Assembly (NCBI GenBank): GCA_947085915.1
Contig: CAMTYD010000020.1
Location: 1 to 42,726 of the forward strand
Length of the DNA stretch: 42,726 bases
Origin: an uncultured Parcubacteria group bacterium
GTDB lineage: Bacteria; Patescibacteriota; Minisyncoccia; Phycocordibacterales; UBA2100
Direction: 5' to 3'
Below the pieces are notes generated by a model. It saw only the letters and a list, made by a program, of their open reading frames with translations. It was not told where the DNA came from and did not search any database. A program made the position numbers and the translations under genes. Positions 2,774-13,344 of this stretch are shown here, piece after piece (the stretch's first letter is position 1; each line of letters starts with the position of its first letter).

Positions 2774-3919
2774 ATGAAGTACCTGTCGCATGCAGAGATG
2801 TTCTCGGGTTTCCGGAAGCATCTCCATCTGGTTGTATTTCTCGCACTCATCGCGTTGCTTGTCGCGGGGTTTGGAATGCAGCAGTCGCGTGCTCCATTTG
2901 CTTCCGCTGAAGTTCAATTCACTGATGTCTCAGCACGCGGTATGCACATCGTTCCGGCGTCATGCCCGTCAGACCAGCATTACGTAGGAGAGTGCGCTCC
3001 GCCTACCTGTCCTTCCGGATACGTGGGCACCCCACCCAACTGTACCGTTCCCGGTCCGTCGAGCGGCTGCAGTATTACATCCAGCCCGGACCCCATCGTT
3101 GCCGGCCAGAGCACCTCACTCTCTTGGAGCACTCTCAACTATCAACATCTTGGTTTCTTGAGCGTTGCACCAAGCGGTACTTCGATAAGCCCGGGTATCG
3201 GTGCAGTAAATCCTTCAGGCTCGGCGACGGTCAGCCCAACTCAGACGACCACTTACACCCTCTCGGGTTCATATGTACTTAGTGGTGAGGGTGGGGGTCT
3301 TGGAGACAAGATTTTCGGCCTCTTCCGTGGAGCAGGCGCCACCGTAAACTCGTTCTCGTGCTCGAGGACAGTCACGGTGAATGCGTGCCCTGCGGGGTAT
3401 GTATTGACCGGGGGAACCTGTGTGCTTTCGGAGTGCCCCTTGGGCTTCGTTCTCCAAAATGGAGCATGCGTTTTCAATGCTTGTCCGAGCGGATATGAAC
3501 GGCAGGGAAATCAGTGCGTAAGCACGGCATCGGCATGTACTGCGGTCAATTATTGTGTCGGGAACACTTTGTGGCATAGGAATGCCCAGTGTGCGACGAA
3601 CCCCGTTCAGACATGTGTATCCGGTTGTGCCTCCGGTGCGTGTATTGCAACCCCGGCTCCATCCGTGGTTACATGGCGCGTCTATCCGTCGCTGATCCAG
3701 CCAAACGAAACGGCAAATGTGGAGTGGGAAGTCATCAATGTGCGTTCGTGCGAAGTACACGGTAACAACAACGACTCATGGACAGGCGTATCAGGTGTAA
3801 AGGTTTCAAGCCCCCTAACGGCACAGACTATTTTCACGCTCAACTGTACTGGCCTCGACAACTCGACGGTGACGCGGACAGCGACTGTCAACATCACACC
3901 GATATTCAACGAAAACTGA
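2774..3919 (+). CDS. Secreted/surface Cys-rich protein with Ig-like beta domains
   Basis: N-terminal hydrophobic segment, repeated CPxG(Y/F)xxxxxxC units, and beta-rich segments (GQSTSLSWS, VSPTQTTTYTL, TIFTLNC). Confidence 0.7.
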   Translation: MKYLSHAEMFSGFRKHLHLVVFLALIALLVAGFGMQQSRAPFASAEVQFTDVSARGMHIVPASCPSDQHYVGECAPPTCPSGYVGTPPNCTVPGPSSGCSITSSPDPIVAGQSTSLSWSTLNYQHLGFLSVAPSGTSISPGIGAVNPSGSATVSPTQTTTYTLSGSYVLSGEGGGLGDKIFGLFRGAGATVNSFSCSRTVTVNACPAGYVLTGGTCVLSECPLGFVLQNGACVFNACPSGYERQGNQCVSTASACTAVNYCVGNTLWHRNAQCATNPVQTCVSGCASGACIATPAPSVVTWRVYPSLIQPNETANVEWEVINVRSCEVHGNNNDSWTGVSGVKVSSPLTAQTIFTLNCTGLDNSTVTRTATVNITPIFNEN

Positions 3920-9896: not shown

Positions 9897-10208
9897 ATGA
9901 AACTCAAGAAAGGAGATAAGGTCCTCGTTATCGCGGGGAAGAATAAGGGAGAAAGCGGCGCAATCGTACGCGTCTTGGTACGCGACAACATGGTGCTTCT
10001 CGACGGTATCAACCTCGTGAAGCGTCATCGCCGTCCATCAGCTCAGAATCGCAAAGGCCAGATTATTGATATGCCGGTGCCGATACACGCCTCCAATGTC
10101 ATGCTCGTGGACCCGAAGACAGGCAAGCCGACCCGCATCAAAATCACACGCAACAAGGAGGGCGGACGTGAGCGTGTCGCGGTCAAAAGCGGGGAATCGT
10201 TGAAATAA
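9897..10208 (+). CDS. rplX: 50S ribosomal protein L24
   Basis: KOW motif MKLKKGDKVLVIAGKNKG; PIHASNVML. Confidence 0.97.
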   Translation: MKLKKGDKVLVIAGKNKGESGAIVRVLVRDNMVLLDGINLVKRHRRPSAQNRKGQIIDMPVPIHASNVMLVDPKTGKPTRIKITRNKEGGRERVAVKSGESLK

Positions 10209-10209
10209 T

Positions 10210-10740
10210 ATGAATGCAACAAAAACACATAACAAAACATTCGATGCGCTCAAAGGTGAGCTTGGCTACACAAACGTCATGCAGACCCCCAAGGTCTCCA
10301 AGATAATCGTCTCGACAGGCGTCGGCTCGCTCAAAGACAAAAAGAAGATTGAGCTCATCATCGAGCGACTCACCCGTATCACAGGTCAGGCTCCTGCAGT
10401 GCGTGGCTCTAAGAAATCAATCGCAAACTTCAAGAGCCGTGTCGGTGATGTCGCAGGCTACCAGATAACGCTTCGCGGCGCCCGCATGCAGTCATTCCTC
10501 GACAAGCTCATCCACATCGTATTTCCCCGCGTCAAAGACTTCCGTGGTATCAAGCCGACGGCAATCGATGAGATGGGCAATATCTCAATAGGATTCAAGG
10601 AGCACATCGTATTTCCTGAGACGTCCGACGAAGACACAAAAGACATCTTCGGCCTCGCTGTCACTATCGTCACGACCGCTAAGAGCAGAAAAGAAGCAGA
10701 AGCGTATCTCCGCTATATCGGCATCCCTTTCAAGTCGTAA
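10210..10740 (+). CDS. rplE: 50S ribosomal protein L5
   Basis: NVMQTPKVSKI, ITGQAP, SIANFKSR, PRVKDFRG, EHIVFPE. Confidence 0.97.
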   Translation: MNATKTHNKTFDALKGELGYTNVMQTPKVSKIIVSTGVGSLKDKKKIELIIERLTRITGQAPAVRGSKKSIANFKSRVGDVAGYQITLRGARMQSFLDKLIHIVFPRVKDFRGIKPTAIDEMGNISIGFKEHIVFPETSDEDTKDIFGLAVTIVTTAKSRKEAEAYLRYIGIPFKS

Positions 10741-10756
10741 ACAACTAGCAAACCAA

Positions 10757-10787
10757 GAAAACGGCTCACCAAGAGTGAGCCGTTTTC
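10757..10787. terminator. Bidirectional intrinsic terminator after rplE
   Basis: GAAAACGGCTCAC-caaga-GTGAGCCGTTTTC perfect stem with A/T runs on both sides. Confidence 0.8.
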
Positions 10788-10818
10788 AATAGGAGAAGCT
10801 CTCCATAGAGTGCAAGCA

Positions 10819-10854
10819 ATACACAATCTCTGCCGACCGCTACAGATTGTGTAT
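10819..10854. repeat. 36-bp palindromic site, copy A (downstream of the PaaX/Cas2-like gene)
   Basis: ATACACAATCTCTG-CCGACCGC-TACAGATTGTGTAT; direct repeat of 11434-11469. Confidence 0.9.
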
Positions 10855-10859
10855 ACGGA

Positions 10860-11423
10860 TTATTTCAATCCAAAGTGTGCTTTTATCTCTGCGTCACCTT
10901 CGATTTTCTCGGCGATAACATATCGCACATTCTTTCCTGTACGTAATTCGAGTTTTATCAACGCAATAAGCTCTTCGCTGTCATACGGATAGACCCATAC
11001 GCTGTCCTGAAGTCGGAAGAAACCCAGCTGTCTGATAAGCGCAGTAAGTCTGTTCCGGCTTTTACGCCATTTCTCCGGAATATCGAAAATAACCATTCGC
11101 CACCTTTTGTCCCAGCGTTTCTTTGGGAGGGGAATGGTGGTTATATTGTCCAACAATCGTTGACCTTTGGGGGTTAAGCGCGCGTAACTCACCTCATCTT
11201 TTTTTACGAAAGTAATAAGACCTTTTTGTTTCAGCCGTGTTAGTGCATTGGTGCTTTGCGCAAAAAAGCGCGACTTATTCTTTACGCTACCGAGTAGCTT
11301 TAGAGTATTTGGAGCCATCACCCCGATGGCGAGGATTCCCGCGATGCCAATCGCAGAGAGGGTGGCATTCTGAATAGCGCCTCTGGTTCGCAATTTCCTC
11401 GCTTCTTGTTCAATATCACCCAT
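10860..11423 (-). CDS. PaaX-like protein: winged HTH plus C-terminal Cas2-like (ferredoxin-fold) domain
   Basis: wHTH-type ALTRLKQKGLI...ARLTPKG, then WDKRWRMVIFDIPE...LGFFRLQDSVWVYP, typical of the PaaX central/Cas2-like domain. Start moved to ATG 11423 (187 aa), 7 nt from TATACT. Confidence 0.85.
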   Translation of the reverse strand: MGDIEQEARKLRTRGAIQNATLSAIGIAGILAIGVMAPNTLKLLGSVKNKSRFFAQSTNALTRLKQKGLITFVKKDEVSYARLTPKGQRLLDNITTIPLPKKRWDKRWRMVIFDIPEKWRKSRNRLTALIRQLGFFRLQDSVWVYPYDSEELIALIKLELRTGKNVRYVIAEKIEGDAEIKAHFGLK

Positions 11424-11433
11424 AGTAACCAGT

Positions 11434-11469
11434 ATACACAATCTGTGCCGACCGTCAGAGTTTGTGTAT
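11434..11469. repeat. 36-bp palindromic site, copy B (over the promoter of the PaaX/Cas2-like gene)
   Basis: ATACACAATCTGTG-CCGACCGT-CAGAGTTTGTGTAT; overlaps the minus-strand -10 TATACT (11431-11436). Confidence 0.9.
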
Positions 11470-11510
11470 GGGGAGTTTGTTGGGTAGGATGTTAGAAACA
11501 TCGAAGCTAT

Positions 11511-12209
11511 ATGGCAGACTCACGCAAGCACAAGGAATTCTGGAACAAGGAATACAGAACGAGCGAACACCTCACGCTCTCTACCGCACCTTCCGAAGAC
11601 CTTGAAAAGTTCACCCGCTTCCTGGAGAGAGAATACAAACGCGAATATCTCAACGGCTACGCCCGTGTCCTGGACCTGGGCTGCGGCAACGGCCGCAATC
11701 TTATCTACCTCGCCGACCAATACGCTATGCGGGGCGTGGGCTATGACATCTCCGATGTGGCGATTGCCGAAGCGGTCAAAGCCTCCAAAGACTTACACTT
11801 GGAATACGAAGTGCGCTCTATCGCCGAGCCGCTACCGCTTGCGGACGGCTCCGTCACCATGGTGCTCGATATGATGACCTCGCACTTCCTCAAGGGGGAG
11901 GAGCGCAAAGCACTCAAAGCAGAAATTCTCCGCGTACTGCGTCCGGGTGGCTGGCTCTTCTTCAAGTCATTTCTTGCCGATGAGGACCTCAACGTAAAGC
12001 GGCTTTTGCGGGAGAACCCTGCCGACGAAGAAAATGCGTACATCCACCCCAAAATGGGAGTGTATGAATACGTGTGGACCGAAGAGGCGCTAGAGGAATT
12101 CTTCACGCCCGAATTTGAGATACACAAAGTACACAAATCTCACAAACACCTCCGCCGCGGCAAACCCGGCAAACGCCGCACCCTCTCTGCCTACATGCAG
12201 AAATTCTAG
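11511..12209 (+). CDS. Class I SAM-dependent methyltransferase
   Basis: Motif I VLDLGCGNGRN, GYDIS, LPLADGSV, EILRVLRPGG. Confidence 0.9.
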   Translation: MADSRKHKEFWNKEYRTSEHLTLSTAPSEDLEKFTRFLEREYKREYLNGYARVLDLGCGNGRNLIYLADQYAMRGVGYDISDVAIAEAVKASKDLHLEYEVRSIAEPLPLADGSVTMVLDMMTSHFLKGEERKALKAEILRVLRPGGWLFFKSFLADEDLNVKRLLRENPADEENAYIHPKMGVYEYVWTEEALEEFFTPEFEIHKVHKSHKHLRRGKPGKRRTLSAYMQKF

Positions 12210-12307
12210 TTACATAGACAAAGAAGGAAAGCTCTATATCATCAAGTTGTTTTGGGTTAGGCGGTTACCAAGACATTGCATATGCAAACCGTGTTCAGGA
12301 GGCCCAG

Positions 12308-12519
12308 ATGAAGGCCAGGGAAATTCCGCCCTAGCGGCGGATCGCGAAGCGTTACTTCTCGATGCGTGGCATCTTTCCAAGCAAAGTGAGGAAACGCGAC
12401 ATTTGCCATTTTGCGCCCATGATCAAACGTGGTCGCATTGGCCAGTTGAACGGCTAGCAGTTGTTGTCAATGTCATGCGCCTTGTGGCGGAAGGCAAGAC
12501 GAAGCCGCTTACCTTTTGA
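12308..12519 (+). pseudogene. Possible frameshifted small orphan gene
   Basis: AGGAGG (12297-12302) precedes ATG 12308, which stops at codon 9. The -1 frame stays open to TGA 12519, just before a terminator. Confidence 0.3.
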
Positions 12520-12532
12520 CTGAAAACATCGG

Positions 12533-12565
12533 AATGGGTGCGGGCGACTGCACCCATTTTCTTTT
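12533..12565 (+). terminator. Intrinsic terminator
   Basis: AATGGGTGC-gggcgact-GCACCCATT followed by TTCTTTT. Confidence 0.75.
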
Positions 12566-12566
12566 G

Positions 12567-12595
12567 TTGACTTTACCCCTCGGTTCGCGTATATT
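12567..12595 (+). promoter_or_regulatory. Sigma70-type promoter of the rpsN-secY part of the spc operon
   Basis: TTGACT (12567-12572), 17-nt spacer, TATATT (12590-12595). Confidence 0.7.
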
Positions 12596-12769
12596 TCCTG
12601 AGCCTCGTAGGGGGCTTTGTTTTTTAGAGTGATTCGGGCTTAGGCCTGAATATCGCAGGAACAAGGTCACGGAGGGAGTTTCTTTAACCCAACATCCGAA
12701 AGGTGGGGTGCCGGAACTTCCACTTCTCCTTTAGGCTCCTCTCGACTAGCTCGAGGTAAACAAAAAGTC

Positions 12770-12955
12770 ATGGCAAAGAAATCAATGATCATAAAGGCGA
12801 ACCGCGTACCGAAGTTTTCTTCGCGTACGGTTCGACGCTGCTTCAAGTGCGGCCGCCCACGCGGATTTATGCGCGATTTCAATCTTTGCCGTATCTGCTT
12901 CCGCGAGGAGGCTTTGGAGGGAAATATTCCTGGAATCAAAAAATCATCATGGTAG
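12770..12955 (+). CDS. rpsN: 30S ribosomal protein S14, short Zn-binding (type Z) form
   Basis: 61 aa with [10 protein letters not shown] and LCRICFRE (four Cys) and PGIKKSSW. Confidence 0.97.
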
Positions 12956-13344
12956 GCGATACGATCGGTGACTTCATAGTGCGACTTACAAACGCCGGTG
13001 CAATCAAGAAGGCTACCGTCTCGGTACCGTACTCGGCATTCAAGATGGCTGTCGCAGAAAAGTTGAAAGACATGGGCTACGTGAAGGATATCGAGAAGAA
13101 GGGTAAGAAGGTCAAGAAGACCATCGATGTCGTCCTCAAGTACTCAGAGACTGGCGAACACGCTATCCAGGGCGTAAAGCGCATCTCGAAGCCGGGCCGC
13201 CGTTTGTACAAGAGCACACGTGAAATCGTCCCTGTCCGCTACGGACACGGCTCGCTCGTTCTCTCGACCCCGAAAGGAGTTCTCTCCGACAAGGAAGCTC
13301 GCAAGCAGAATGTCGGCGGTGAAGCACTCTTTGAAATCTGGTAA
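12949..13344 (+). CDS. rpsH: 30S ribosomal protein S8
   Basis: [40 protein letters not shown]. Start overlaps the end of rpsN. Confidence 0.97.

Follow-up and report, generated by a model that had tools for sequence, protein, structure and literature searches.

In this study we analysed a short PaaX-type gene, hereafter mini-PaaX, and the two 36-base-pair (bp) quasi-palindromes that enclose it on contig CAMTYD010000020.1 of an uncultured Parcubacteria group bacterium (assembly GCA_947085915.1). The whole contig of 42,726 nucleotides (nt) is called the window, and the genome, with 786,396 bases and 91% complete, is labelled G000. The locus is one member of a large family in Patescibacteria, in which an upstream palindrome, a short PaaX-type gene and a downstream palindrome follow one another. 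The balance of evidence tips modestly towards a self-repressing protein encoded within its own predicted binding sites, the second of which would serve as an anchor or insulator, with the whole unit gained and lost as a block. The features that carry this reading are as follows.

10860 to 11423, minus strand: short PaaX-type (mini-PaaX) gene, 187 amino acids (aa), protein start MGDIEQ, match to Pfam PaaX_M (E 4e-19)
10819 to 10854, unstranded: site A, 36-bp quasi-palindrome ATACACAA...CCGACCG...TTGTGTAT, the gene-downstream copy
11434 to 11469, unstranded: site B, 36-bp quasi-palindrome, the gene-upstream copy and a probable operator over the promoter
11431 to 11458, minus strand: mini-PaaX promoter-like site, with -35 CTGACG at 11458-11453, a 16-nt spacer and -10 TATACT at 11436-11431

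Sites A and B lie in direct orientation on the plus strand, 615 bp start to start, and tightly flank the gene as the initial annotation of this stretch had described. Site A begins 6 nt past the mini-PaaX stop codon, between the gene and a hairpin that follows rplE. Site B spans -46 to -11 relative to the mini-PaaX ATG and ends 41 nt upstream of the ATG of a divergent methyltransferase gene; its overlap with the -10 box, also noted earlier, is confirmed by the sigma-70-like promoter found there. A search with the 21-nt left part ATACACAATCTSTGCCGACCG, allowing up to three mismatches, returned two matches in the window, namely A and B, with 0.00 expected from 100 shuffles. The two sites differ at 5 of 36 positions, and 14 of 18 positions pair within site A. 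Over 15 nt their gene-proximal arms match perfectly in inverted orientation (GTATACACAATCTGT / ACAGATTGTGTATAC), giving the inverted repeat that had been obtained by joining the left arm of B to the right arm of A.

The same bracket recurs across the family. The arms were compared over 30 loci of the genus and order, two further paralogs of the present genome, 30 metagenome loci and 80 loci from genome_contigs. After incomplete and identical loci were dropped, 116 non-redundant loci were evaluable, and 103 of them possess a clear pair, with the upstream and downstream 36-mers alike at 24 or more of 36 positions. In a cross-locus control, where the upstream site of one locus was set against the downstream site of another, the mean was 15.8 with a standard deviation of 4.5 and a 95th percentile of 24. 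Paired palindromes around PaaX/Cas2-like homologs, which the initial annotation had proposed to look for, are thus the rule. The outer 8 nt or so of the arms are locus-specific and equal on both sides of a given gene, the inner arms vary, and the centre is common family-wide. Forty-two downstream copies in the 103 loci begin within 7 nt of the stop codon. The family is carried by 31 of 36 genus genomes with one to eleven matches each, three in the present genome (overall range 0-11). Relatives are also encoded on at least 595 stretches of genome_contigs, whose record titles include Kaiserbacteria, Paceibacterota, Patescibacteria and similar names.

Mini-PaaX starts with a hydrophobic N-terminal segment, continues with a winged helix and a Cas2-fold domain, and ends without the C-terminal effector domain of PaaX. 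Its match to Pfam PaaX_M reaches 68.9 bits against a cut-off of 24, and its match to Pfam Cas2 is weak (22.9 bits, cut-off 23.8), as is that to the winged-helix model HTH_45. The Cas2 model TIGR01573 scores 30.3 bits against a cut-off of 24.5, but spans just 44 residues. The full-length PaaX equivalog TIGR02277 scores 38.5 bits over model positions 39-160 of 279, far under its cut-off of 264.55, because the C-terminal effector domain is missing. PADLOC returned weak Cas2 and CARF matches and nothing else. An AlphaFold2 model built with 39 relatives as input has a mean predicted local distance difference test (pLDDT) score of 80. Its best Foldseek matches in the PDB are Escherichia coli PaaX (8a39, E 3.6e-4) and Rv0674 (3kfw, 1.1e-3), followed by Cas2 chains, and a profile search of PDB sequences gave 3kfw at 0.0033 and 8a39 at 0.096. 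The ferredoxin-like Cas2 fold occupies residues 105-185 or so, of which the weak Pfam, NCBIfam and PADLOC Cas2 matches span about 45 residues. In the family alignment the Cas2-fold half is conserved far more than the winged helix. Invariant residues include W104, D105, R109, F113, D114, R123, Q139, S141, W143, P146 and E150, and D114 aligns with an Asp of the Cas2-like protein 3exc that we take to be catalytic in Cas2.

A role of the gene in a CRISPR (clustered regularly interspaced short palindromic repeats) system was considered and rejected, since no Cas1 was found and the PaaX_M match is much stronger than that to Cas2. Cas1 (PF01867) had no match in the 91%-complete genome, in which no search for a CRISPR array was made. 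Together with the missing effector domain and the many copies per genome, this agrees with the earlier view that the protein is neither a CRISPR part nor a phenylacetate regulator.

All 45 family proteins inspected carry a 19-residue stretch with a Kyte-Doolittle mean of at least 1.6 (2.0 on average) and positive charge on either side, a transmembrane-grade segment that serves as a membrane anchor or else forms an unusually greasy beginning of the winged helix. Here the stretch lies at about residues 20-38, window positions 11310-11365. In the column of E117, within an FDIPE motif, Gln replaces Glu in eight of nine proteins from loci with a CCATGG core and in none of 62 from loci with CGnnCG; the CCATGG loci may be one clade.

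The -10 TATACT lies 7 nt from the mini-PaaX ATG, which implies a leaderless mRNA and places palindrome B over the core promoter. Across the family, the end of the upstream copy falls at -1/0 of the ATG in 44 of the 103 loci, and TANNNT is found at -12 to -7 in 22 of these 44 upstream sites versus 2 of 44 downstream sites. We therefore take the upstream palindrome to contain the promoter of an apparently leaderless gene, and its downstream counterpart to be a 'clean' copy. Palindromy is on average better in the downstream than in the upstream copies, though many of the former still pair at just 9-14 of 18 positions.

Site A was also considered as the terminator of mini-PaaX and rejected. Its RNA fold is weak (-19.5 kcal/mol, z -1.9), no U tract follows, and a canonical bidirectional terminator stands 30 nt further on. 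That element, a G+C-rich hairpin at 10757-10787, probably ends both the rplE and the mini-PaaX transcripts, so that site A is not needed for termination. The broader view that all palindromes are RNA hairpins, acting as terminators or 3'-end stabilisers and resembling each other upstream and downstream for reasons incidental to the protein, can draw on the transcription of site A within the 3' untranslated region, on the better pairing of downstream copies, and on two of four solo copies lying between convergent genes. We consider it extremely improbable. Upstream copies that end at the ATG are promoter DNA and not RNA, many downstream copies pair poorly, site A has the weak fold just described, and the arms co-vary with the paralog, as a protein-DNA code would give.

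We suggest that a mini-PaaX dimer binds its own 36-bp site, the Cas2-fold domain being the part that dimerises in PaaX. The variable winged helices would read the locus-specific outer arms, here ATACACAA and TTGTGTAT at a distance of 20 bp, and the conserved Cas2-fold dimer would lie over the conserved central C-G-N-N-C-G. The far greater conservation of the Cas2-fold half is what leads us to place variable helices on variable arms and the constant domain on the constant centre. Binding at site B, over the -35 and -10 elements, would repress mini-PaaX itself, and may also affect the divergent methyltransferase gene. The initial annotation had already raised binding of the flanking sites, which is most likely, and autoregulation, which the position of site B over the promoter implies. 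Site A, and a third copy described below as site C, would be further binding sites of the protein. The most likely part for site A would be that of a second anchor, either forming a loop with B or acting as a roadblock against convergent read-through from rplE, and the unit would then regulate itself alike in any genomic context. We infer this insulating or looping role of site A. Loss of the unit would most simply occur if the two direct copies recombined, with one palindrome left as a solo.

Solo palindromes do occur. Site C lies at G000:C19:4914-4949, on another contig, between the terminator of an RNA-recognition-motif protein gene and a small membrane-protein gene, and the 36-mer is hence not tied to the mini-PaaX gene of the window only. 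Seven of the eight positions that vary among A, B and C fall within 22-28; site C looks constrained like A and B, since positions 1-21 and 29-36 are kept in all three. A common genome-wide repeat was rejected as an explanation, with only three copies of the motif in the 786,396-base genome. Solo copies also accompany the palindromes of the other two paralogs, one for the paralog on C14 and two for that on C32. The rplI/rpmA junction, usually 0-30 nt long, holds a family palindrome in the present genome and in just 1 of the 29 relatives. None of the five closest relatives has the palindrome at the site C locus, where the present genome has about 95 extra nt. These same counts led us to reject a conserved regulon at the solo sites.

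Further observations were made on solo and unaccompanied palindromes. A 24-codon frame starts with an ATG straight after site C (L001, 1541-1615, on G000:C19), and its TGA overlaps the start codon of the membrane-protein gene as ATGA. Five relatives lack this frame and have TATAAT and then 6 nt ahead of the ATG of that membrane-protein gene. Two identical perfect 36-bp family-type palindromes with core CGGTCG, at G000:C12:1532-1567 and 3551-3586 (L084), enclose about 2 kb with four small open reading frames (ORFs) that have no Pfam match, and no mini-PaaX gene. A third near-identical copy is located at G000:C47:4608, and the cognate mini-PaaX gene is absent from the assembly. Solo family-type palindromes are also present at G000:C8:10468, C24:25753 and C28:48238, two of which share TACATAATA arms; no matching cassette was found for these three in the 91%-complete genome. 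In the genus relative G003 a solo palindrome stands between the rplE terminator and the methyltransferase gene (L043, about 610-650), which is the position of the window's cassette, and its arms match G003's own cassette on another contig (L021).

Several points weigh against a self-repressing protein within its own binding sites. Regulation alone does not explain why a second site stands directly after the stop codon in most relatives. Two of the four paralog-matching solos lie between convergent genes (rplI/rpmA, and an aminoacyl-tRNA synthetase fragment/cysS), where there is no promoter. The solos are unfixed in position, and as lineage-specific insertions or scars they would fit better than as an old regulon. 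The consensus promoter scan found one site versus 1.2 in shuffles, and the promoter match alone is not significant. In the AlphaFold2 model residues 17-47, in the first part of the DNA-binding domain and including the hydrophobic stretch, are of low confidence (pLDDT below 50).

The layout of the two sites has also been read in another way. According to the initial annotation, A and B would be tyrosine-recombinase sites of the loxP/FRT/dif kind with attL/attR hybrid arms, left by the integration of a 615-bp circle, and the gene would be excisable. In its favour, the layout here is 14-8-14 with direct cores, the gene-proximal arms match perfectly, direct cores are commoner in the family than inverted ones (31 versus 15), and other contigs of the genome carry a full-length tyrosine recombinase gene and a fragment of one. 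We nevertheless judge this reading to be very unlikely. The statement that the arms pair better across sites than within a site is correct in its counts: mismatches over the 15-nt arms of the window are 3+3=6 within sites, 4+1=5 for direct pairing and 2+2=4 for crossed pairing. However, the margin is only one or two bases, so that in substance the arms match a little better when inverted and the core matches when direct, and family-wide the crossed pairing is the worst, with 793 mismatches over the 103 loci compared with 751 within sites and 672 for direct pairing. It is uniquely best in 17 of the 103. Among the 31 loci with direct asymmetric cores, the arms favour direct pairing in 19 and crossed pairing in 6, with 6 ties. 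Judged by these alignments, the crossed-arm pattern of the window is no more than noise would give.

The cores point in the same direction. They are symmetric in at least one copy at 57 of the 103 loci, direct at 31 and inverted at 15. The 6-mers of the family are palindromic or one step off (CGACCG/CGGTCG, CGGCCG, CGATCG, CTATAG, CCATGG), and the window core CGACCG, which had been taken for an asymmetric spacer, is one base pair from the palindromes CGATCG and CGGCCG seen in relatives. With 57 symmetric and 15 inverted cores, a directional spacer and a fixed relative orientation of the sites, both needed for loxP-type excision, are not conserved. Moreover, the arms differ per paralog, so that a single host recombinase could not read all of them. 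No tyrosine recombinase was found on the window's contig, in agreement with the earlier remark that no integrase is nearby; elsewhere in the genome there are two PF00589 matches, on C56 and C27, which are the full-length enzyme and the fragment mentioned above.

The cassette-less form of the locus was examined in relatives and in sequencing runs. The features outside the bracket are listed here.

10210 to 10740, plus strand: rplE, ribosomal protein L5, the convergent left neighbour
10757 to 10787, unstranded: G+C-rich hairpin with intrinsic-terminator score on both strands
10788 to 11510, unstranded: block present here, with about 31 nt in its place in the closest relative (L034)
11511 to 12209, plus strand: class I S-adenosylmethionine (SAM)-dependent methyltransferase gene, the divergent right neighbour

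The closest relative in the genus sample, L034, shares 93% protein identity in rplE, 96% in the methyltransferase and 100% in rpsN. There rplE and the same hairpin are separated from the methyltransferase gene by about 31 nt, with neither a mini-PaaX gene nor a palindrome, and the next relative (rplE 91%) shows the same arrangement. The empty single site that had been expected after rplE is therefore not found. The G000 intervals syntenic to four cassettes of relatives likewise contain neither a cassette nor a family-type palindrome. In run X1, which also holds the window sequence, a 371-nt contig of about 90% identity joins position 10770 to 11526 via 55 other letters. This contig is the cassette-less form of a related population, in which the segment was replaced rather than cut out.

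The junction 21-mer, which would occur in both the predicted circle and the predicted empty-site junction, had no match in metagenome_contigs or genome_contigs. A 615-bp joint from A to B was absent from the contigs of four runs; these are Logan contigs, which drop rare forms and break around palindromes, so that this negative is weak and rare excision could not be revealed. Hence we see no support for integration at, or excision to, one matching site, and the circle, its junction and the hybrid arms of the initial annotation find no backing in the arms, the cores or the relatives.

Beyond the methyltransferase gene lie rpsN and rpsH; of the 20 genus relatives fetched, 9 likewise have the methyltransferase gene placed between rplE and rpsN. 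The gap between it and rpsN (12210-12769) measures 560 nt here, versus about 210 nt in the closest relative, and holds no convincing ORF; Rfam and tRNA scans of 10000-13200, which take in this gap, were negative.

Gain and loss of the unit as a block are better documented. Of the 20 relatives with a fetched rplE region, 3 share with the present genome a mini-PaaX cassette directly after rplE, and the three proteins there are 43-46% identical to that of the window and are accompanied by different palindrome arms. Orientation to neighbouring genes is random (n=100, crude ORF calling): 47 upstream neighbours are tandem and 44 divergent, and 50 downstream neighbours are tandem and 41 convergent. 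Boundaries were examined in 15 non-identical cassette pairs from five groups, each at least 80% identical in DNA. Collinear homology ends within 4 nt past the outer edge of the downstream palindrome in 8 of the 15 pairs. It ends within 3 nt of the outer edge of the upstream palindrome in four, one of which has just 44 nt of upstream flank available. In the clearest pair the block extends from -37 to stop+40/45 and the flanks are unrelated; in several others the upstream boundary lies 30-200 nt further out. Taken with the closest relative that lacks it, these comparisons show the unit to be a discrete evolutionary block, with the downstream palindrome as a preferred junction. The one-gene mobile cassette of the initial annotation stands to this extent, in that gene and palindromes are present or absent together among relatives; its loxP-like circle integration does not. 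For the window's own cassette, no relative closer than 56% was found in the collections searched; the three paralogs of the genome are 36-39% identical to each other.

At two metagenome loci a conserved ~50-nt element that normally precedes dnaE and contains CAAGSGRGCAAGG is present on both sides of a cassette insert, at 1507 and 2742 in L057, and in L059 at 1052 and about 1100 nt downstream of the cassette ATG. These flanking duplications look like ordinary homologous recombination, as a single-crossover insertion would give.

The block-like behaviour raises the possibility that the cassette mobilises itself, the protein cutting or joining DNA at the terminal palindromes via its Cas2-fold domain, or recruiting host enzymes, with the solos as footprints or targets. 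This main alternative would work along the lines of REP/RAYT pairs or of a minimal insertion sequence, though without a known transposase fold. In favour of it are the bracketing of the gene by cognate sites at 103 of 116 loci, the frequent end of homology at the downstream palindrome edge (8 of 15 pairs, and the upstream edge in 4), the random orientation to neighbours and the patchy copy number of 0-11 per genome, the lineage-specific solos that match resident paralogs, and the invariant polar residues of the Cas2 fold, including D114. We still regard self-mobilisation as unlikely. No recent copies were seen, the own paralogs being 36-39% and the best relative 56% identical; A and B differ at 5 of 36 positions, and no target-site duplication is evident. 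The protein has no known recombinase or transposase motif: no HUH/Y1 transposase model in Pfam matched at E up to 0.01, and with one His in total it cannot contain an HUH motif. The fold is the same in PaaX proteins, which are not known to act as nucleases. Finally, the upstream boundary often lies 30-200 nt past the palindrome, and the two dnaE-element duplications suggest homologous recombination. It is quite unlikely, in our estimate, that mini-PaaX modules are autonomous mobile elements of a new kind, in which the protein would read the palindromes via their arms, act at the central 6-mer via the Cas2-fold dimer, move or copy the cassette and leave the solos behind. If this were true, it would be a case of Cas2-fold-based DNA mobility without Cas1 and without a known transposase or recombinase.

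Patescibacteria have tiny genomes and few recognisable regulators, yet many of them carry several copies of this module, each with private palindromes. Should the protein be a self-repressing binder, the palindromes on either side would supply a ready protein-to-DNA recognition table for a large unstudied family; if it also moves the cassette, this would be a new chemistry of mobile elements with ties to the fold used in CRISPR adaptation. Databases label part of the mini-PaaX family as Cas2. For annotation, we propose that these genes be named neither CRISPR parts nor phenylacetate regulators, and that the adjoining palindromes not be named recombination sites from layout alone. Among the titles and abstract beginnings returned by a literature search, no paper describing the module was found.

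Among known systems, Cas2 shares the ferredoxin-like fold, with Foldseek matches to Cas2 chains, but in mini-PaaX this fold is fused to a winged helix and the protein scores 68.9 bits to PaaX_M versus 22.9 to Cas2. The loxP, FRT and dif sites, and the pdif modules, resemble the present locus in that a short centre is set between inverted arms and two sites enclose one or a few genes. They differ from it in that the centres here are mostly palindromic, the arms paralog-specific and the orientation mixed, that no recombinase is linked, and that the empty locus of the sister species has no site. Comparable in organisation are the repetitive extragenic palindromes (REPs) and the REP-associated tyrosine transposases (RAYTs, TnpA_REP), which are relatives of HUH/Y1 transposases. 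There too a gene is flanked by palindromes that its product presumably recognises, and solo copies are intergenic, often at the 3' ends of genes. In contrast, mini-PaaX is PaaX-like without an HUH motif, has one or two solos per paralog instead of hundreds, and its upstream palindrome doubles as a promoter.

PaaX, the phenylacetyl-CoA-responsive repressor of E. coli and Pseudomonas (8a39), offers a likeness in protein and site alike, with a winged helix followed by a Cas2-fold middle domain. Mini-PaaX differs from it in length (187 versus 316 aa) and in the lack of the C-terminal effector domain, and possesses a strongly hydrophobic N-terminal segment and a second site after the stop codon. 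Its neighbours are not paa genes, and a genome may contain as many as 11 copies, every one with a palindrome of its own. The E. coli PaaX operator is given in a review as TGATTC(N27)GAATCA, and PaaX represses its own promoter (PMC9493321). Distant short inverted arms are thus common to both, TGATTC-N27-GAATCA in PaaX and ATACACAA-N20-TTGTGTAT here, and the operator dimensions and self-repression logic of PaaX match the layout of the mini-PaaX module.

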